DNA of 33,426 nt from a virus (lineage: Duplodnaviria > Heunggongvirae > Uroviricota > Caudoviricetes): IMG/VR virus record IMGVR_UViG_2579778982_000017; one strand, 5' to 3'. Below, piece after piece: positions 4,920 to 33,426 of the stretch (position 1 is its first letter; the number at the start of each line of letters is the position of its first letter). The notes under the pieces are model-generated. The model did not search any database. It saw only the letters and a list, made by a program, of their open reading frames with translations, and had not been told where the DNA came from. Position numbers and translations under genes: made by a program.

Positions 4920-4995
4920 GGCCCCTTAGCTCAGTGGTTAGAGCAGGCGACTCATAATCGCACGGTCATCGGTTCAAATCCGGTAGGGGCCACCA
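4920..4995 (+). tRNA. tRNA with anticodon CAU, most like tRNA-Ile2 (ileX-type) rather than elongator tRNA-Met; 3' CCA encoded
   Basis: 76 nt, GGCCCCT/AGGGGCC acceptor stem, GTGG D-loop, anticodon loop CTCATAA (CAT at 4953-4955), GGTTCAAATCC T-loop. First ~42 nt match my recollection of E. coli ileX. Confidence 0.85.
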
Positions 4996-5303: not shown

Positions 5304-5891
5304 ATGGAGGCAATTGCATTGTTTAATCTGATTTATGCAGATCCCCCCTGGGAATACAAAGACAAGTGTAAGGATGGGAATCGTGGCGCTGGTTTTAAGT
5401 ATCCAACGATGAAAGCTGAGGATATTGCTCGTATTCCTGTCTGGCAGCTTGCTAATCCTGAATCGTGTTTGTTGGCCATGTGGTGGGTTCCGACTCAGCC
5501 AGAAGAAGCGTTGCTGGTGGTGAAAGCATGGGGATTCAGGCTGATGACCATGAAGGGCTTCACATGGAACAAATGTGGTAGCCGACAACCAGATAAGCTG
5601 GTGATGGGGATGGGGCATATGACTCGTGCAAACAGTGAAGATTGCTTGTTTGCAGTGAAAGGCAAACTACCGACACGTCTTGATGCGGGGATCATTCAGT
5701 CGTTTACATCGCCTCGTCTGGAGCATTCTCGGAAGCCTGATGTGGTCCGTGACAAGCTGGTAAAGCTGTTAGGCGATGTTCCTCGTATTGAGCTGTTTGC
5801 TCGCGGTGATTTACCTGATGGCTGGCATGGCTGGGGCAACCAGTGCAACGGAGGTATCCAGTTGCATGATGCTCTCTGGCAAGTGTCATAG
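5304..5891 (+). CDS. DNA N6-adenine methyltransferase, MT-A70 family (orphan, no nuclease partner seen)
   Basis: N-terminal IYADPPWEY (DPPW catalytic motif) in a ~195-aa protein; GGAGA upstream of ATG 5304. Confidence 0.8.
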   Translation: MEAIALFNLIYADPPWEYKDKCKDGNRGAGFKYPTMKAEDIARIPVWQLANPESCLLAMWWVPTQPEEALLVVKAWGFRLMTMKGFTWNKCGSRQPDKLVMGMGHMTRANSEDCLFAVKGKLPTRLDAGIIQSFTSPRLEHSRKPDVVRDKLVKLLGDVPRIELFARGDLPDGWHGWGNQCNGGIQLHDALWQVS

Positions 5892-8051: not shown

Positions 8052-8675
8052 ATGACAAAACATCTTAATGTGGTTTCTTTACCACTTTCTGTGTTGATTG
8101 GTTATGAAAAGAACGCTCGCACACACTCCGTGGAGCAGGTAGATCAGATTGTTGCCAGCATACAGGAGTACGGATGGACTAATCCGATCCTGATAGACGA
8201 GAACAACGTTGTAATTGCTGGTCATGGTCGAATTGCTGCGGCCACTCAGTTGGGGATGGATGAGGTTCCCTGCATTGTTCTGGAAGGGCTAACGGAGAAT
8301 CAGAAGAAGGCATATCGTCTGGCCGACAACCGTATTCCGCTGAATGCTGGTTGGGATGAAGAGTTGTTAAGCGCGGAGCTTGCAGATCTTGCGGCCGATG
8401 ATTTTGCTCTGGACTCAATTGGTTTTACTCAGCGCGAACTGGATAACTTATTGAGTGCGGCGGTCTACGATGACACAGAGGGTATGGATATCCCATTTGA
8501 GAAGGATGAGGCCAAATCAGGCGTAAAAGTTCAGTACCTGTCATTTGGAGGTCATAAAATCCCGGCAACGGATGAGGAAGCGGATCGTTTTGACTGCGCG
8601 GTGTCTCGTTATGTTGATGATAATGGCAGCTATATCGGATTTGTATCCGCATTGCTGGCTGGGGAGGTGTGCTGA
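8052..8675 (+). CDS. ParB-like N-terminal (ParB/Srx fold) domain protein with acidic C-terminal region
   Basis: PILIDENNVVIAGHGRIAAATQLGMDEVPCIVL and QKKAYRLADN are ParB N-domain-like; stop overlaps next start (TGATG). Confidence 0.75.
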   Translation: MTKHLNVVSLPLSVLIGYEKNARTHSVEQVDQIVASIQEYGWTNPILIDENNVVIAGHGRIAAATQLGMDEVPCIVLEGLTENQKKAYRLADNRIPLNAGWDEELLSAELADLAADDFALDSIGFTQRELDNLLSAAVYDDTEGMDIPFEKDEAKSGVKVQYLSFGGHKIPATDEEADRFDCAVSRYVDDNGSYIGFVSALLAGEVC

Positions 8676-10048
8676 TGCTTCACCTGAATTACGACATAAC
8701 GCACCTACGCGGCGCGGAATATAACCCGCGTTTTATCGGTGAGGATGATCTTGCGAGGCTGGCGGAAAGCGTCAGGGAGCTGGGGCTTGTGAAGCCATTG
8801 ATAGTGCGCGGCGATTTGCTGGTGGCGGGACACCAAAGGACGAAGGCGCTACGTAAGTTGGGAATAACGCGTGCTGCGGTGTATGTGTTGCCCTGTGAAA
8901 CGACGGTATACGATGAAGTACGGTTTAACCAACTGCATAACGGAACGGATTTTGATAGCGGAGATGAGCGTTGCAGGGTGTCCGGTCTGGAAGATAAGCA
9001 TGGTTTTGTTCAGGTATCGGCAAGCCAGATCTCAGGCAATATGCGCGCGAAAATGGCATATGTTCGAAAGAACATAGCGGAACTGGTTATCAAGTATGGT
9101 CCGTGGGGGGGTTGTGTTGCTACTCAGTCTGGTGAGGTTATTCACTGTGCTCAGTATGCATTAGCAGCGAAAATGACGCGCACACCGCTAACGGTGTTTG
9201 TGATCCCTGATGTTGAGAAGGAAAAATACCAAAGTTATCTGAATAAAACTTATGGTGTATTTGAGTATTCTCATCTGGAGAAAACAACATATATCCAGAC
9301 GTATGCGCAGCTTATGCGGTTGCGTAATGGTGGCAGCCTGAAATCAAATCTGTATGAGTCGTTGATCCTCCCGATCATTGCCAAGACGCCAAGAGGAATT
9401 GATTTTGGTTCGGGGCAGGGAGACTACGCGCGAATGCTCAGGGCAAAGGGATATAACCTGCATGATCTCGAGCTTTTTCGCCGTAAGGGCGCTGGAAACA
9501 CTCTGGATAGGACCGCAACAAACCGGATGATTGATACGCTGGTGGACGACTTAAAAACGCGAGGGCGTTACGACTACGTGATTTGCGATAGCGTTTTGAA
9601 CTCGGTCGATAGTGTCGAGGCTGAATGGTCCGTTCTGACGGTTCTGAAAGGCCTGTGTAAAGCTGGTGGGTCAATATTCTTTTCTGGTCGTAGCCGTGGA
9701 GAGCTGGAAACAGTCCTGAAGCAAACACAAGCGGCGAGTTCCAAAAGCCGGCTTTATTTTATTGATCATAACGGTTTTACCGCGTTGTACCGGAAGGGGC
9801 ACTGGTTTTACCAGAAGTTTCACTCTGATGATGAAGTGAAGCAGTTGTGCCGTGTACATGGTTTCAGGATTAAGCGGTCAATATTCAACTGTAAGAGCTG
9901 GTATTTGCACGTCATTAACGATGATTCCCTTAGTTGGGCGAGTCTGGAGAAAGCTGTTCGTTTTGAGTTTGAGTTGCCGTTGCCTGGTGGTTCAACAATC
10001 GGACGATCTGATGATGTGCTGGCGGCTTTCCGGCCGTTGATTAAGTAG
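8675..10048 (+). CDS. Fusion protein: ParB-like N-terminal domain + Rossmann-type SAM-dependent methyltransferase domain
   Basis: ATG 8675 with GGGGAGG 7 nt upstream (track uses GTG 8669). N-terminus PLIVRGDLLVAGHQRTKALRKLGI; C-terminal half has IDFGSGQGDY (SAM glycine loop), HDLELF and DYVICDSVLNSV; no DPPY/NPPY/DPPW motif seen. Confidence 0.7.
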   Translation: MLHLNYDITHLRGAEYNPRFIGEDDLARLAESVRELGLVKPLIVRGDLLVAGHQRTKALRKLGITRAAVYVLPCETTVYDEVRFNQLHNGTDFDSGDERCRVSGLEDKHGFVQVSASQISGNMRAKMAYVRKNIAELVIKYGPWGGCVATQSGEVIHCAQYALAAKMTRTPLTVFVIPDVEKEKYQSYLNKTYGVFEYSHLEKTTYIQTYAQLMRLRNGGSLKSNLYESLILPIIAKTPRGIDFGSGQGDYARMLRAKGYNLHDLELFRRKGAGNTLDRTATNRMIDTLVDDLKTRGRYDYVICDSVLNSVDSVEAEWSVLTVLKGLCKAGGSIFFSGRSRGELETVLKQTQAASSKSRLYFIDHNGFTALYRKGHWFYQKFHSDDEVKQLCRVHGFRIKRSIFNCKSWYLHVINDDSLSWASLEKAVRFEFELPLPGGSTIGRSDDVLAAFRPLIK

Positions 10049-10064
10049 TCTGTAGGAGGCGCTG

Positions 10065-10784
10065 GTGGCTGACAGAATTGAGATAAAGATGGATTTTTCT
10101 TCTCAGGATATTCAACGACAACTCCAGCGCCTTGAAGAACGCGAATTGCCGTTCGCAATGGCGCTTGCGGCAACCAGAACGGCAAAGGCTTCTCAGGCTG
10201 CGATTAAGAATGAAATTAATCGGGTATTTGACAGGCCCACGCCGTGGATTCAGAACTCTACTTACGTTTTGGCCGCAAAGAAGAGCGATCCTACAGCCAT
10301 TGTGTATGCTCGTGAATGGGGAGGAACGCCAGCCCCTGTAACGTTGACCCCGCAAATCGAAGGTGGCCAACGACAGTACAAACGCTCAGAAGGGGCGCTA
10401 AGGGCTGGTGGATATTTGCCTAACGGCTGGCAGCTTGCTCCTGGTCCCGGCGCAAAGCTGGACAAATATGGGAATATTTCGCGGGGGCAATTACAGCAGG
10501 TCTTATCTGGCCTAAGAGTTCAGCGAGATGCGCATCAAAATCGCCGTCAGGGCAAGCCTACGGAGTTTTTTGTTGTTCGACCTGGTACAAGTAACCCGCT
10601 TCAACCAGGCGTCTGGCAGCGCGTTGGGCGGCGTCCTACGTTGATCCTTACGTTTATCCAGCAACCTAACTATTCGCAGCGTCTTGATTGGCATGGCGTG
10701 GCGCTGCGTGCTGGTGAGGATGCGTTTGCTGATGAAGTCACAAAGGCTATTGATGACATTCTTTCTAAGACCTTCTCTCGTTAA
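10065..10784 (+). CDS. Hypothetical protein (239 aa), last gene of the ParB/methyltransferase operon
   Basis: GTG 10065 with GGAGG at 10054-10058, 17 nt after upstream stop; Gln/Arg/Pro-rich; no motif recognised. Confidence 0.55.
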   Translation: MADRIEIKMDFSSQDIQRQLQRLEERELPFAMALAATRTAKASQAAIKNEINRVFDRPTPWIQNSTYVLAAKKSDPTAIVYAREWGGTPAPVTLTPQIEGGQRQYKRSEGALRAGGYLPNGWQLAPGPGAKLDKYGNISRGQLQQVLSGLRVQRDAHQNRRQGKPTEFFVVRPGTSNPLQPGVWQRVGRRPTLILTFIQQPNYSQRLDWHGVALRAGEDAFADEVTKAIDDILSKTFSR

Positions 10785-10975
10785 TCATCGTGTGGTTGAT
10801 GGTGTTGTTATGCAGAGTGTATTCACTGTGTTCTGTAGCGTCGCTCGCTGGCTGTCTGTGGGGGAGCACGAGCATCGTTTCATCGTCCGGCAGAATTGGG
10901 TCCTTCTGGCCAAAAGCGTTGGATGCGGGTCATTCGAACCCCGATGTTCGGCTAGCTAAACGTGAAAAAAGTTAG

Positions 10976-11341
10976 GTTAAAAGTTGCGGTAAAAGAAATT
11001 TACTCATCTCATTGAAAAATATCGGGAAAACGTGATTTTTTGCTGTATTTGTGCTGGTAAAAAGAAAGTAGAAAATTTTCTTTTAGATCATCAAGATACG
11101 CGCAGATCTTTAACCAATGTGATGTTGTTCTGATAAAAATAGTTATAAATCATGCAAATACATCCAATCTTTTAACCAAAACACCATCGCAAGATCCTTT
11201 TTACTTATAAAAACTTAATAAAATCAGATAATTATGCTGGTTTGTGTGATTTTTTATGAGTAAAAAGATCGTCATTTTTCTCTTTTAGTATCAATAAGTT
11301 AAACAGTTTTCTTTAACCTGTTGTGTTATGGCGGTTAAAAA
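10976..11341. promoter_or_regulatory. Long AT-rich non-coding region with clustered GATC sites and short repeats (promoter or packaging-site candidate)
   Basis: ~365 bp without a credible ORF; GATC at 11086, 11105, 11193 and 11267; CTTTAACC-type repeats at ~11108, ~11168 and 11312; lies upstream of the packaging genes. Confidence 0.35.
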
Positions 11342-11932
11342 ATGGCTCTAAAAATCGAATATTTACCAGTCGGTAAGCTGCTCAGATACGCCAAAAATTC
11401 ACGGACTCATTCAGATGAGCAGGTTGAACAGTTGGTGAACAGTATCCGTGAGTTCGGTTTCACTAATCCTGTGCTGATCGATGAAAAGAATGAACTGATT
11501 GCGGGGCATGGTCGGCTTGCAGCAGCCGAAATTCTGGAAATGGATAAAGTTCCGGCGATTCGGTTGAGTAACCTTTCTGAAAAACAGAAGAAGGCGTACA
11601 GGATTGCAGATAACAAGCTGGCCTTAAATGCTGGCTGGGATATGCAGCTTCTGGCCGAAGAAGTCAAAGAGTTAATGGATGATGATTTTGATATTGATCT
11701 GCTTGGGTTTAATGATGCAGAGCTTGACGAAATGTTAAGCGATGAACAGCCGCAGGAAGAAGACGATAATTCTTCCCCTGTTGTTCAAATTAAGTACCTG
11801 GCTATTGATAAAGAACGTATTCCCGCGACGGATATGGAAATTGCATTGTTGCTGGATGTTTATCGTCAGTACCACGACGCGCATGAAACGCATGAGGGAT
11901 TTGTTCAGTATCTTGCTAATGGTTGCAAGTAA
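11342..11932 (+). CDS. ParB-like N-terminal domain protein, paralogue of 8052-8675
   Basis: About half the first ~130 residues identical by eye to 8052-8675 (RTHS-EQV, TNP-LIDE, IAGHGR, QKKAYR-ADN, LNAGWD); stop overlaps terminase start (TAATG). Confidence 0.75.
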   Translation: MALKIEYLPVGKLLRYAKNSRTHSDEQVEQLVNSIREFGFTNPVLIDEKNELIAGHGRLAAAEILEMDKVPAIRLSNLSEKQKKAYRIADNKLALNAGWDMQLLAEEVKELMDDDFDIDLLGFNDAELDEMLSDEQPQEEDDNSSPVVQIKYLAIDKERIPATDMEIALLLDVYRQYHDAHETHEGFVQYLANGCK

Positions 11933-12483
11933 TGGTCATCGTCAGTAAGTCAGAGTTTGCCCGCCGGAAAGGTATTTCTCCGGCAATGGTTACGAAGCTC
12001 TGTCGTTCCGGTCGCATTCCAGTGCTGAAAAGCGGCAAGCTGGATTTTGATAAAGCCAGTGCGGCTTATGAAGCGAGCCGACAGGTTGGCCGTGAGGTAT
12101 CTGCTGAAAATGGAAAAAGAGGGCATGGGATATCTTCGGAACAACCAGAGTTACCCGCTGATGATGCCGGATTAGCTGGTGGTACTTCCGGTGTTGCGGT
12201 GCAATTCAACAAGGCTAAGACCGCAGAAAAAATTTATCAGGCAAAGCTGAAACGCCTTGAATTTGAAGAAAAGGAAGGCTCTCTCATCGCTAAAGATGCG
12301 GTCAGGGATGATGCATTTCTGGCAGCTAATGAATTGCGTAGCCGCTTATTTAGTATTGCTCCAAGAGCAGCTCCCCGTTGTGAAGGCAAAACAGCCAGGG
12401 AGATCGAACGCATTATTGAAGACGAGATTAATTTTGCGCTTCAGGCGCTCCAGGAATCCCGATTTATTAAGCAGGAAGAATAA
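11932..12483 (+). CDS. Terminase small subunit (Nu1-like)
   Basis: Directly upstream of the large subunit; N-terminus SKSEFARRKGISPAMVTKLCRSGRIPV resembles the lambda Nu1 N-terminal DNA-binding pattern. ATG 11932 preferred over the track's TTG 11923. Confidence 0.65.
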   Translation: MVIVSKSEFARRKGISPAMVTKLCRSGRIPVLKSGKLDFDKASAAYEASRQVGREVSAENGKRGHGISSEQPELPADDAGLAGGTSGVAVQFNKAKTAEKIYQAKLKRLEFEEKEGSLIAKDAVRDDAFLAANELRSRLFSIAPRAAPRCEGKTAREIERIIEDEINFALQALQESRFIKQEE

Positions 12484-12488
12484 ACCTC

Positions 12489-14345
12489 ATGGGCGAAACA
12501 GTATGGAGCACCGCTTTTTTCCGTGCGCTTCGCCCTAAATCACGGCTAACTGTTTCCGAATGGGCTGATAAGTATCGTCATGTAGCGCCGGGAACGTCTC
12601 CAGAGCCAGGGCCGTGGTGTACAAGCCGAGTGCCATATTTGCGTGAACCAATGGATGTTATTGGTGACGCTGATACAGAAACAGTAGTGATGCAATGTAG
12701 CTCGCAAATTGGTAAATCCGAATTACAGCTAAATGTTATGGGTTACTTTGCAGATCAGGAGCCATCTCCTCAGTTGATGATTTATCCAACGGTAGAGGCG
12801 GCTGAGGCTTTTTCAAAAGAGCGTATTGATCCGACGTTCAAATATTCCCCTGGTTTGAAACACAAGCTGCATGAAGGGAAAGAGGGGCGCGGTGCAGCCA
12901 AAAAGTCCAGCACGACTATACGTATGAAGCATTACGCTGGTGGATATATAGCACTTGTTGGTGCTAATTCCCCAGCAGGTCTTGCATCCAGGCCAATTCG
13001 AATACTGTTAGCTGATGAGATTGATCGTTACGGTGTGACGCAGGAGGGCGACCCACTAAAACTAGGTATTCAGCGTACTACCAACTTTCATAATCGTAAG
13101 AAAGTTTTTGTTTCTACTCCTGTTTTGGAGGAAACGAGCAAAATCCACAAGTGGTTTAAGCTCTCCGATCAGCGTTACTACCATGTTCCTTGCCCATGTT
13201 GTGGCACCATGCAGGTGATGAAATGGTCGCAAGTCAGATGGGATAAGAGCGATTCAGGTGAGGCGTTACCGGAAACGGCCAGATATGAGTGCTGTGAGTG
13301 CGGCGGGATTATGCGCGGATCTGGTAAACCAGACGTTGATTGGTTGGCGAAGGGGGTTTGGATAGCTGAACATACTGGAGTTAAAGGTATTGTTGGTTTT
13401 CATATTAACAGTCTTTACTCCCCGTGGGTTGCATTGTCAGAGCTGGTTGAAGAATTTACGGAAGCAACCAGAAACCGCGATAAAAATGGATTAATGGAGT
13501 TTATTAACCTTAAGCTGGGTGAGCCATGGAAAGAGGATGCTAAAGACGATATAGATCCTGAATACTTGTTGCAACGCAGAATAAGGTTTGAAGAGTTTTT
13601 ACCAGATGATGTTTTATTGTTAAGTGCTGGTGTTGACGTACAGGACACGTATTTAGTTTGTGAATTGGTCGGTTGGGGAAAAGGTAAGGAGTCATGGGGG
13701 ATAGAATATAAAATATTCCCAGGTGATCCCGCACAAGATGTTGTCTGGAAACAACTTGATGAATACTTACTCCGTAGCTGGTCATTCCGTGACGGTCGAA
13801 AATTACAGATTTCTTCTGTTTGTATTGACTCTGGTGGGCATTTTACGACAGAGGTATATCGCTTTACTAAGCCGAGAGAATCAAGGCGAATATACTCTAT
13901 CAGGGGGCGTGGTGGGGTAGGTTTACCATTTATAGGAAAGCCAAGTAATAATAACCGTGTGGGTGCTATGTTGTTTAATTTAGGGGTTGATGATGGTAAA
14001 GGGACCATCATGGCAAGAATTAAACTACATGATCCTGGTCCTGGTTATATGCATTTCCCATTAGATTCTGACAGAGGATATGATACCGAATACTTTAAAG
14101 GATTATTATCAGAGAAAAAAATATTTGAATATAAAAATGGGCAGACAAAAGAAAAGTGGGTGAAAGTCTACGAGCGTAACGAGCCTCTTGATTGCCGTAA
14201 CTATGCAACTGCCGCGATGGAAATTCTGAACCCTAATTTTAACTGGCTTGCCGAACAGGAAATGCGAGGTAATGTGTATGTGCAGAACTCGTCAGGTATA
14301 CGTAGAAGACGCCGTAGAGTTATAAGTAAAGGCGTAACCATATAG
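12489..14345 (+). CDS. Terminase large subunit (lambda gpA family)
   Basis: 618 aa; N-terminal TVSEWADKYR and C-terminal NEPLDCRNYATAA resemble lambda gpA as I recall it; position before gpW-like and portal genes. Confidence 0.9.
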   Translation: MGETVWSTAFFRALRPKSRLTVSEWADKYRHVAPGTSPEPGPWCTSRVPYLREPMDVIGDADTETVVMQCSSQIGKSELQLNVMGYFADQEPSPQLMIYPTVEAAEAFSKERIDPTFKYSPGLKHKLHEGKEGRGAAKKSSTTIRMKHYAGGYIALVGANSPAGLASRPIRILLADEIDRYGVTQEGDPLKLGIQRTTNFHNRKKVFVSTPVLEETSKIHKWFKLSDQRYYHVPCPCCGTMQVMKWSQVRWDKSDSGEALPETARYECCECGGIMRGSGKPDVDWLAKGVWIAEHTGVKGIVGFHINSLYSPWVALSELVEEFTEATRNRDKNGLMEFINLKLGEPWKEDAKDDIDPEYLLQRRIRFEEFLPDDVLLLSAGVDVQDTYLVCELVGWGKGKESWGIEYKIFPGDPAQDVVWKQLDEYLLRSWSFRDGRKLQISSVCIDSGGHFTTEVYRFTKPRESRRIYSIRGRGGVGLPFIGKPSNNNRVGAMLFNLGVDDGKGTIMARIKLHDPGPGYMHFPLDSDRGYDTEYFKGLLSEKKIFEYKNGQTKEKWVKVYERNEPLDCRNYATAAMEILNPNFNWLAEQEMRGNVYVQNSSGIRRRRRRVISKGVTI

Positions 14346-27719: not shown

Positions 27720-28036
27720 ATAATACGTTTACCATATCATCACCTTCTTACTCGATTGATTGGTCGCCCAAAACAGTTGTAGAAGAAGTTTTGCAAAATG
27801 TCTCTACTATTATTAATACTCAGATTGGCACTGTACCATATGCCAGAAAATTAGGAGTTAATTCAAGTCTTGTTGATAGCCTCAGCCCAATTTTTATTGC
27901 TACAGCAACACGAGAAATAATTCAAAAAATTAGTGAGTTTGAGCCTAGAGCGATTATCCATTCTGTTACTTTTGAAAGAACGGACGTTTCTGATGGTTTT
28001 ATTAGGCCAAAACTTGTGATAGGAGTTAGAGAATGA
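27716..28036 (+). CDS. Baseplate wedge protein (P2 gpW / T4 gp25-like)
   Basis: 106 aa directly upstream of the J-like gene; size and order match the gp25/GPW family. Confidence 0.7.
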   Translation: MNNTFTISSPSYSIDWSPKTVVEEVLQNVSTIINTQIGTVPYARKLGVNSSLVDSLSPIFIATATREIIQKISEFEPRAIIHSVTFERTDVSDGFIRPKLVIGVRE

Positions 28037-29157
28037 CGTTGCCGCGCGGTGGTTTGCCAGATATTACTTTCGCAGATTCTAACCCGACTGATATAACAAC
28101 TCGTTCAATCAGGGCTTTTGAGAGTATAACAGGTGAAACATTAGCACCTGCTGATCCACGTAGATTATTCATCTTATCATTGTGTGAGATTATTATACAG
28201 CAAAGAAAAGCTATCGATTTTTCTGCAAAACAAAACCTTCTTACATATGGTGAAGGTGAATATCTCGACCATATAGGCTATCTGACGGATACGCCTAGGC
28301 TGGAAGCTCAATCTGCCTTGACTACATTTGAGTTTAATCTGTCAACAAAATTATCGGGGATATATACAATACCTGCTGGCACTCAAATTTCAACTGGAAA
28401 TAGTGTTATTTTCCAAACAGATGTTTTGTTGGAAATACCAGCTGGGAAAACAGTTGGTACAGTCTCAGGATATGCTGTTATACCTGGTTTATCGGGGAAT
28501 GGCTTTTTACCAGGGCAAATAAATGAGTTGGTGACTCCGTTGCCGTATGTTTCCAGCGTAAGGAATCTAACAACATCTAATTCTGGTGCTGATACAGAGT
28601 CAGATGATAATTATGCTGAAAGAATAAAACTTTCGCCGGAAAAACTATCTACAGCAGGGCCGGAGGATTCTTATAAATATTGGACAAGAACAGCCAATCA
28701 GAATATAAAAGATGTGAATGTATATACACCATCGCCCGGAACTGTAGAAATCCGTTCTTTGTTAGAGAACGGAGATATACCTTCTGATGAATTATTAGAG
28801 CAGATAAATAGCGTTCTCTCTGCAACTAATATTCGACCATTCACAGATAAAGTTCTTGTTAAGAAACCAGAGAGCGTTGAATACGATATAATAATTAAAT
28901 ACTGGATTAACTCATCGGACAAAAACAGAACAACTTTAATTCAAAGTGAGGTTGAGAAAGCTATTGATGAGTATAAACAATGGCAACGTTCGGTTATGGG
29001 AAGAGATATAAATCCAGATGAAATTATTCAACGTTTAAAAAATGCCGGGGCTAAAAGATTAGAAATATCAAGTCCTGTATTTACTGTGGTTGGAGAGACG
29101 CAGGTCGCCAGAGAGAGAAATATAAATTGCCAGTATGCGGGGTTAGAGGATGGCTGA
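28033..29157 (+). CDS. Baseplate protein J (P2 gpJ-like)
   Basis: 374 aa between the W-like and I-like genes. Confidence 0.7.
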   Translation: MTLPRGGLPDITFADSNPTDITTRSIRAFESITGETLAPADPRRLFILSLCEIIIQQRKAIDFSAKQNLLTYGEGEYLDHIGYLTDTPRLEAQSALTTFEFNLSTKLSGIYTIPAGTQISTGNSVIFQTDVLLEIPAGKTVGTVSGYAVIPGLSGNGFLPGQINELVTPLPYVSSVRNLTTSNSGADTESDDNYAERIKLSPEKLSTAGPEDSYKYWTRTANQNIKDVNVYTPSPGTVEIRSLLENGDIPSDELLEQINSVLSATNIRPFTDKVLVKKPESVEYDIIIKYWINSSDKNRTTLIQSEVEKAIDEYKQWQRSVMGRDINPDEIIQRLKNAGAKRLEISSPVFTVVGETQVARERNINCQYAGLEDG

Positions 29158-32536: not shown

Positions 32537-32564
32537 AAGGCCCGATAGCGGGCCTTAATTTTTA
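32537..32564 (+). terminator. Hairpin between the convergent fibre assembly genes
   Basis: AAGGCCCG-ATAG-CGGGCCTT perfect 8-bp stem followed on the + strand by AATTTTTA. Confidence 0.55.
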
Positions 32565-33089
32565 TTCAGGCTTTTGTGGCCATTCAGGATTTGCCGTATC
32601 CACACGGTTGACCAGAACACTGTAGCGTTCCCATGCTTCCAGTCGTGTGCGTTCCTCGTCTGTTGCCATATTCAGCCTGACAGCGCGTTCCAGCGGCTGG
32701 ATGACTGATTCAGCTTCGGAAAGCAATGCGGCCTTTTGTGATTCAGCTTGTTGTTGCTGTTCGTCTGCCGTATAAATCCGTTTAACCACAGCACCATCCT
32801 TAAACATCCATTTACCTGAGTCGTCAGCACGTCGGTTGGAGGTAATATCAGGAACCTCAACAACGCTAAAACCTTCAGGATTAAGCGTTGAAGCATCTCT
32901 GGTGATAGCGACTATAATCTGATTTTTATCGTAAACAATCTTTATGGTGTCTGGCTGAAAGTTTTTCACTTCCTCATACCAGTTTTTTTCGTCCTCAGAG
33001 TAAAGCCAGATGACTCCGTGCTTCTTTGTTAACTCATACTGTTCCAGTGTTTTAGCATTACCCACTTTTATGTTCTTTAAGTGCATCAT
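32562..33089 (-). CDS. Alternative tail fibre assembly protein (U'-like), inverted orientation
   Basis: 175 aa on the - strand; about half the residues identical by eye to 32000-32533 ([58 protein letters not shown]). Confidence 0.85.
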
Positions 33090-33090
33090 A

Positions 33091-33426
33091 TTAAACGCTC
33101 GCTATATTATACCAGGTGCCATTTATATACTTTTGAACGGGTCTGTAATAAACGCCCGCTATATTATCGGCAGAGTTGGACCCTGTATCCTGAACATTAA
33201 TACCAGACAATACATGACCTGAAGGGCACTGGAAATTCCATGTTTGCCAGTTGTTCACTCCATAATATTGCTGTGAACCAAGTCGAACATCTTTCACATA
33301 TCTGGAGTCAAAATTGCCATAGTTTCCGGGAATAACTTGCGAGCCGCAAAGCCAGTTCCCGTTATTATCCATGTACGCCTGACCATCGGTGCCATTGGCT
33401 GTCCTTGAGTTATTAATCATGTAGAT
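33091..33426 (-). CDS. Alternative tail fibre C-terminal segment (Sv'-like), 5' end beyond the window
   Basis: - strand ORF stays open to the window edge; encodes [14 protein letters not shown]...[16 protein letters not shown], matching the + strand fibre C-terminus with a different middle part. Confidence 0.75.

Follow-up and report, generated by a model that had tools for sequence, protein, structure and literature searches.

The terminase-proximal region of the phage-plasmid

We examined a ParB-like gene that abuts the small terminase gene in a 33,426-nt stretch of caudoviricete DNA (IMG/VR record IMGVR_UViG_2579778982_000017), the whole of which is referred to below as the window. The region is 99% identical to E. 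coli plasmids of approximately 48 kb, with 74 of the 75 matching places located on plasmids, and 62 PLSDB records match it. It also matches plaque-forming phages, namely vB_EcoM-613R2 and the Yersinia phages vB_YpM_39, 41 and 44. The element is a phage-plasmid of E. coli, about 48 kb in size; its head is lambda-like and its tail contractile. In RefSeq, the complete plasmid of ATCC 25922 is annotated with RepA and with a ParA that has a partner of 82 aa. All of these are encoded far from the late region, and the ParA pair lies approximately 30 kb away from the ParB-like gene. Behind the lysis genes, the late region also contains a tRNA whose anticodon is CAT (4920-4995; tRNA-Ile in RefSeq) and a gene for an MT-A70 family methyltransferase (Table 1). 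Near the end of the window (32562-33420, minus strand), ORFs for tail-fibre assembly and a tail-fibre C-terminus are found in inverted orientation after the plus-strand tail-fibre genes. A recombinase adjoins these inverted ORFs in the full plasmids. This suggests that the segment determines host range and can invert, in the manner of Mu Gin or P1 Cin.

Table 1. Genes and sites around the terminase genes, with their positions in the window and the basis of each assignment
Feature	Position	Strand	Basis or remark
MT-A70 family DNA methyltransferase, possible in-trans partner	5304..5891	+	Pfam MT-A70 (E=4e-23); PADLOC MTase_II
ParB#1, 207 aa, Methyltransf_23-linked clade	8052..8675	+	BLASTP, Pfam, PHROG 620, tree
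ParB_N-Methyltransf_23 fusion, 459 aa, pI 9.2	8669..10048	+	Pfam; PHROG 5475 ("unknown function")
Probable cosN, 12-nt cohesive end GGTCATTCGAAC	10928..10939	.	Phage record ends
AT-rich non-coding stretch, 29% GC, clustered repeats	10946..11341	.	Candidate cosB-like terminase-binding region
ParB#2, stand-alone ParB/Srx-fold protein, 196 aa	11342..11932	+	Pfam ParB_N, PHROG 620, AF2, Foldseek
Small terminase TerS, 183 aa, pI 9.1	11932..12483	+	PHROG 57 (E=9e-42); before gpA-type TerL
gpA-type large terminase TerL, own endonuclease domain	12489..14345	+	GpA_ATPase (5.5e-75), GpA_nuclease (1.1e-84)

A first-pass annotation of this DNA had described the ParB-like gene, here ParB#2, as a paralogue of an ORF located further upstream, here ParB#1. 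BLASTP bore this out, with 96 identities over 201 positions (48%) along the full length of the two proteins (11342-11929 vs. 8052-8672, E=7e-62). Both match Pfam ParB_N (E=3.8e-8 for ParB#2 and 1.5e-5 for ParB#1) and PHROG 620 (E=5e-75 and 1e-74, respectively). The overlap of the ParB#2 stop with the terminase start (TAATG), claimed in the same annotation, is also present: in gcaagTAATGgtc, the TAA at 11930-11932 and the ATG at 11932-11934 have the single base 11932 in common. RefSeq places the terS start identically in the plasmid, with the two genes at 42902-43453 and 43453-44043 and again one base in common. The terS gene has no Shine-Dalgarno sequence upstream of its ATG, whereas the neighbouring genes do have one. 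Given this and the one-base overlap, translational coupling of the two genes is a reasonable inference, and translation of ParB#2 probably drives that of TerS. A scan for sigma-70 promoters and terminators around ParB#2 returned nothing above the expectation from shuffled sequence. At 44%, the GC content of ParB#2 is the same as that of the terminase and head module. No modifying enzyme is fused to ParB#2 or encoded next to it, as its gene is flanked by non-coding DNA upstream and by terS downstream.

The downstream gene had been called a Nu1-like terminase. Its identity as a small terminase holds, given the PHROG match and its position before a gpA-type TerL, but neither the Nu1 family (Pfam Phage_Nu1, E≤0.01) nor a Nu1 structure in the PDB was matched, so that "Nu1-like" can be kept as an analogy only. 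The N-terminal winged HTH of TerS gave weak matches to Cox and AbiEi.

ParB#2 starts 403 nt downstream of a probable cosN. The records of vB_YpM_41 and vB_YpM_44 open the circle at break points exactly 12 nt apart, corresponding to 10928-10939 of the window; the first record starts with the 12 nt given in Table 1 and the second ends with them. This is the pattern expected of a 12-nt cohesive end, and from these record ends we infer that cosN probably lies here. The left arm would then have ParB#2 as its first gene, with a cosB-like region on one side of it and terS on the other. Two repeated motifs are found in the non-coding stretch that precedes ParB#2: TTGTNCTGNTAAAAA, on the minus strand at 11049, 11125, 11199 and 11251 (three or four copies, spaced by approximately 75 nt), and a TCTTTTAACC-like repeat at 10975, 11056, 11168 and 11333. 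For each motif, four of the five matches in the whole window fall within 10946-11341, although in so AT-rich a region this enrichment has weak significance. These repeats are candidate cosB-like sites for terminase binding.

Upstream of the probable cos, ParB#1 is followed by a ParB_N-Methyltransf_23 fusion gene that begins with GTG and overlaps the stop of ParB#1. The N-terminal domain of this fusion is the third ParB_N domain of the window and was missing from the first-pass annotation. Thus ParB#1, unlike ParB#2, has a modifying enzyme beside it. The same pair stands directly before terS in two unrelated phages (L089 and L092), where the terminases behind it have a gpA-type or a Terminase_6-type TerL; the pair is a mobile two-gene cassette. 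The GC content of 8052-10784 is 48-52%, vs. 44% in the rest of the late region, and most relatives lack this block within the 4.4 kb upstream of ParB#2. Both points suggest a cassette that was acquired separately. Judging from the sequence, then, the conserved ParB#2 gene is the resident one, and the cassette formed by ParB#1 and its methyltransferase fusion is accessory.

A 239-aa ORF (10065-10784) stands alone just before cos, apart from the other structural genes. PHROG names it a minor tail protein. In RefSeq it is a hypothetical protein for the ATCC 25922 plasmid, while its Salmonella orthologue, which is 85% identical, is listed there as "glycosyltransferase family 1". The latter name was not reproduced by our searches, in which the ORF matched no Pfam or NCBIfam family.

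Fold and sequence motifs of ParB#2

The AF2 model of ParB#2, built with an alignment of 28 diverse homologues, has a pLDDT of 83. It comprises a nucleotide-binding ParB N-domain (residues 1-95), an acidic helical hairpin of three short helices (residues 101-132), a linker that is disordered by the model and its pLDDT profile (residues 137-148), and a small C-terminal domain formed by a beta-hairpin and two helices (residues 151-192). With a pTM of 0.59, the model does not fix the placing of these domains relative to one another. Foldseek matched the model to Noc, ParB-CDP, PadC and KorB, with 6sdk, 7bnk and 7nfu at a probability of 1.0, and to many phage "ParB" proteins of about 200 aa over the whole length.

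Two phosphate-binding arginines, R21 and R58, are invariant in the ParB#2 family. In a profile alignment to solved ParBs, the family-invariant AGHGR falls on GERR, and H56 takes the place of the catalytic Glu. The retained fold and arginines point to nucleotide binding by ParB#2; members of the ParB-CTPase fold bind CTP, ATP or GTP (PMC12704722). Since the catalytic Glu of Box II is replaced by His, cycling as a CTPase clamp cannot be assumed. The protein is acidic, with a pI of 4.5 overall and 4.05 for the helical hairpin and linker. No HTH family was matched in Pfam, and just three short acidic helices follow the N-domain. The acidity and the missing HTH suggest that ParB#2 acts through protein partners.

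ParB#2 thus resembles the canonical CTPase clamps (ParB, Noc and KorB) in its N-terminal fold and phosphate-binding arginines, but it differs from them in having GHGR rather than GERR, in being acidic, and in lacking an HTH, a ParA-binding motif and a parA neighbour. A service as the centromere-binding partition protein of a plasmid prophage would suit an element that is kept as a plasmid of about 48 kb, and it would suit a ParB N-domain that some records do annotate as a partitioning protein, yet we regard it as highly improbable. The N-terminus of ParB#2, MALKIEYLPVGKLL, contains no LG(R/K)GL ParA-binding motif, and the protein scores 40.1 bits against TIGR00180, below the cut-off of 58.45. 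Its gene belongs to the late operon. One orthologue lies on an integrase-encoding contig and many others come from viral contigs. Moreover, the phage-plasmid has its own ParA system elsewhere, which makes partition an unlikely task for its ParB-like genes. On the absence of an HTH and the presence of this separate ParA system, we rejected a partition role for ParB#2.

The first-pass annotation had likened ParB#2 to the HNH protein gp74 of HK97, an accessory nuclease that is encoded next to the terminase genes and is reportedly needed for end cleavage in some cos phages. Both are small accessory genes beside cos and the terminase genes. However, the fold of ParB#2 is that of ParB/Srx proteins and unrelated to gp74, the protein matched no HNH family, and the gpA-type terminase encoded here has a nuclease domain of its own. 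An HNH-like role was therefore rejected, on the different fold and on the complete gpA nuclease in TerL. To our knowledge, lambda-type terminases need no extra nuclease.

A broader version of this proposal, in which ParB#2 nicks or cuts DNA at cos as an accessory factor or degrades the DNA of the host or of a competitor, is in our judgement improbable as well. It could draw on the position of the gene next to cos and the terminase genes, on the resemblance of GHGR to the motif of the Srx/ParB-nuclease branch, and on a B. cereus prophage ParB-methylase, also encoded next to TerS, that nicks DNA non-specifically in vitro (PMC3592412). The "nuclease" activities reported for ParBs are weak and non-specific, however, and ParB#2 is an acidic protein without a DNA-binding domain. 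Related TerS/TerL pairs work without any ParB, as in the distant TerS relatives described below, and the partners of the nearest ParB#2 relatives are base-modifying enzymes. In view of these points, the nuclease assignment of the first-pass annotation was not upheld.

The pronounced acidity of the hairpin and linker raises another possibility, that ParB#2 is a factor for anti-defence or host takeover. It might, for example, bind or deplete NTPs, or it might be an acidic mimic of DNA that is packaged together with the phage genome and injected along with it. ParB domains do occur in injected polyvalent proteins (PMC5512222), and the ParB#2 gene is expressed late and lies next to virion genes. 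Nevertheless, polyvalent proteins carry ParB domains of another, DdrB-like family, nothing ties the ParB#2 clade to virions, and strict coupling to terS would be unexpected for an injected effector. We consider such a function quite unlikely.

ParB lineages and their gene neighbours

The family to which ParB#2 belongs is large, with 35,735 clusters (50% identity) matching at E≤1e-3. We surveyed the closest 80 IMG/VR loci, using our own ORF calls. All 38 ParB ORFs of at least 380 aa are ParB_N-N6_N4 methylase fusions. After the short ParBs (n=32), the next gene encodes Mom in 10 loci, a TAGT glycosyltransferase in eight, GNAT in three, an N6_N4 methylase in two and a C5 methylase in one; a gene for Mom, TAGT, GNAT or a methylase follows in 21-24 of the 32. 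Among the nearest relatives of ParB#2, therefore, a DNA-modifying enzyme (N6/N4 methylase, Mom, TAGT or Methyltransf_23) is nearly always present, either fused to the ParB domain or encoded by the gene that follows. Fusions to N6_N4 methylase and Methyltransf_23 are also listed as typical of phages in a 2025 survey of the ParB-CTPase fold (PMC12704722). The N6_N4 fusions, among them the ParB-MTase of B. cereus, are 55-62% identical to ParB#2 over the N-terminal ~140 residues and likewise lie next to terS or terL, but ParB#2 has a C-terminal domain of about 45 residues in place of the methylase domain. Up to three genes beyond the ParB homologue, the first large ORF encoded a TerL in 44 of 48 cases, and these TerLs come from four families. 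The homologue starts no more than 150 nt from the end of a viral contig in 14 of the 80 loci, and it is gene 1 in the records of phage X29, the Rc phages and phiLdb.

A second survey was centred on TerS and used an alignment of five sequences, one of seven being too diverse. It yielded 54 loci, 51 of them informative. A ParB-domain gene lies directly upstream of terS at 33 of the 51, as a stand-alone gene in 32 instances (one of them split by a frameshift) and as a ParB_N-fusion ORF in the remaining one. Where at least 4.4 kb of upstream DNA was available, the ParB#1-Methyltransf_23 cassette was also present at only 4 of about 24 ParB-terS loci. A ParB_N-N6_N4 methylase gene directly follows TerL at 9 of the 51 TerS loci, as confirmed for L130. 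No ParB was found at nine of the 51, and these have the most distant TerS proteins (31-33% identity). A GTDB scan returned six TerS relatives, with a ParB_N gene upstream in all five that were informative. The first-pass annotation had raised the question of whether ParB-like genes sit beside the terminase genes of related phages, and the counts from both surveys (33 of 51 terS loci; TerL downstream in 44 of 48) answer that they do.

The methylase fusion that follows TerL marks a sister TerS lineage, in which it is located between TerL and a gpW-like gene (L130:6597-7832; also L129-L133, L145, L146 and L148).

Stand-alone ParB homologues of full length occur in two settings. In one (L089 and L092), the order is ParB, ParB_N-Methyltransf_23, TerS and TerL. 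In the other (the window, X29, L088 and L094), it is ParB, TerS, gpA-type TerL, DUF6148, portal, ClpP, decoration protein and capsid, with no enzyme between. A neighbour-joining tree places the TerS-adjacent and the Methyltransf_23-adjacent ParBs in separate clades, and a distant relative (L119) has one ParB of each clade, which indicates that the two clades had separated before these phages diverged. Between the clades, it is the C-terminal domain that has changed the most (56% identity within vs. 32% between), as compared to 70% vs. 57% for the nucleotide-binding domain. The first-pass suggestion that the duplication reflects a second role fits with this picture of an old split and of copies that track their neighbour, be it TerS or the methyltransferase fusion.

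An association of ParB genes with terminases is already known; the TerS-coupled, enzyme-free clade, positioned as the first gene after a probable cos, is new. As set out in a 2015 review (PMC4738411), Aravind's group predicted that the ParB-Tls locus modifies DNA as part of packaging. Compared with the locus as portrayed there, the present one is alike in having a ParB-domain gene in the terminase operon of a phage or prophage, across unrelated terminase families, and ParB#1 with its methyltransferase fusion corresponds to the textbook case. ParB#2 departs from that portrayal, as it has no modifying enzyme and belongs to a clade of its own, whose members remain next to terS both with and without a modification cassette.

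The best-studied relative is ParB176, a phage ParB that is the obligatory activator of the thymine dioxygenase 5mYOX176 on double-stranded DNA (PMC13229309, PNAS 2026). By its published description, ParB176 has the same architecture as ParB#2: the nucleotide-binding domain is joined through a helical element and a disordered linker to a C-terminal domain, and there is no DNA-binding domain. The neighbour of ParB#2, in contrast, is a small terminase rather than a TET/JBP dioxygenase, and no dioxygenase of that type was found in the full plasmid annotation or among the ORFs that flank ParB#2 and ParB#1.

These comparisons bring up the main rival to the adaptor reading presented below, namely that ParB#2 purely activates a DNA methyltransferase in trans (MT-A70 or the ParB_N-Methyltransf_23 fusion) and makes no contact with the terminase. 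Its adjacency to terS would then reflect late co-expression and inheritance as a block. Such a function would follow the habit of the nearest relatives, which are fused or adjacent to DNA-modifying enzymes, and of the ParB that a DNA dioxygenase cannot do without. In addition, each complete genome of the clade that we inspected encodes a methylase: MT-A70 in L003 and in pAR-0407-1, and Dam in X29. On the other hand, 5mYOX/ParB pairs are encoded side by side, and those tested are cognate-specific (PMC13229309), whereas the candidate partner in this phage-plasmid lies 5.5 kb away. The C-terminal domain of ParB#2 has also diverged to a clade-specific form that tracks TerS adjacency. Finally, the ParB-bearing genes right after TerL in the sister lineage point to selection for proximity to the terminase. 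On balance, we find activation in trans doubtful. The points for and against make the nuclease, anti-defence and partition functions less likely than either this activity or that of an adaptor.

A possible role at the packaging step

The explanation that we tentatively favour is that ParB#2 is an NTP-binding adaptor which, together with TerS and the terminase, acts on DNA that is soon to be packaged, and which may tether modifying enzymes. Four lines of evidence lead us to prefer it: the fold with its retained arginines, the acidity without an HTH, the history of the family and the coupling to terS. The family history suggests a link with DNA-modifying enzymes, and the way in which this particular clade is coupled to terS, with no enzyme between, suggests one with the terminase. 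As the product of the first cistron behind the probable cos, ParB#2 would work on concatemeric DNA when it is packaged, as an adaptor or regulator that binds NTP, and would act via protein partners instead of reading the DNA itself. Basic proteins bound to DNA are the candidate partners: TerS, at the repeats near cos, and enzymes that modify DNA. Where the ParB_N-Methyltransf_23 protein is present, pairing of the ParB N-domains may engage the modifying enzyme. The outcome would be a marking or handling of phage DNA that is coupled to the start of packaging.

Several observations weigh against an adaptor function. The conserved adjacency could reflect inheritance as a block and common late expression, and the TerS relatives at 31-33% identity that have no ParB indicate that terminases of this type have no general need for one. 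Even in the 5mYOX system, nucleotide-binding mutants still function and no stable complex was trapped (PMC13229309).

A more specific form of the adaptor proposal, which we think rather unlikely, is that ParB#2 constitutes a third component of the gpA-type terminase. As an NTP-gated protein made in a fixed ratio with TerS, it would sit at the cos-proximal repeats and would either license the start of packaging or tether modifying enzymes through pairing of ParB N-domains. If true, it would be the first ParB-fold switch shown in virus genome packaging. ParB-fold proteins are general nucleotide-dependent switches with uses beyond chromosome segregation, and most of the uncharacterised ones are found in phages; their linkage to terminases has so far been noted from comparative genomics alone. 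The ParB#2 clade is free of a confounding modifying enzyme and is represented in a tractable E. coli phage-plasmid, available in ATCC 25922 and as plaque-forming Yersinia phages. It offers a clean system for asking whether a ParB module communicates with the packaging motor or with DNA-modifying enzymes only, with ParB#1 and the ParB_N-Methyltransf_23 fusion of the same genome as a built-in comparison.

In its early region (28000-29058), the related Salmonella phage-plasmid pAR-0407-1 (L153) also has a gene for a protein with a DGQHR domain, a domain that we count among the DndB-like members of the ParB superfamily. In Escherichia phage vB_EcoS-673R7 (L087) and in L009-L013, Rac-like lambdoid prophages, a 263-aa ParB-like gene and a partner of about 311 aa lie between trkG and the terminase genes. 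The truncated ynaK of the Rac prophage in E. coli K-12 may, we presume, be a remnant of this 263-aa gene.
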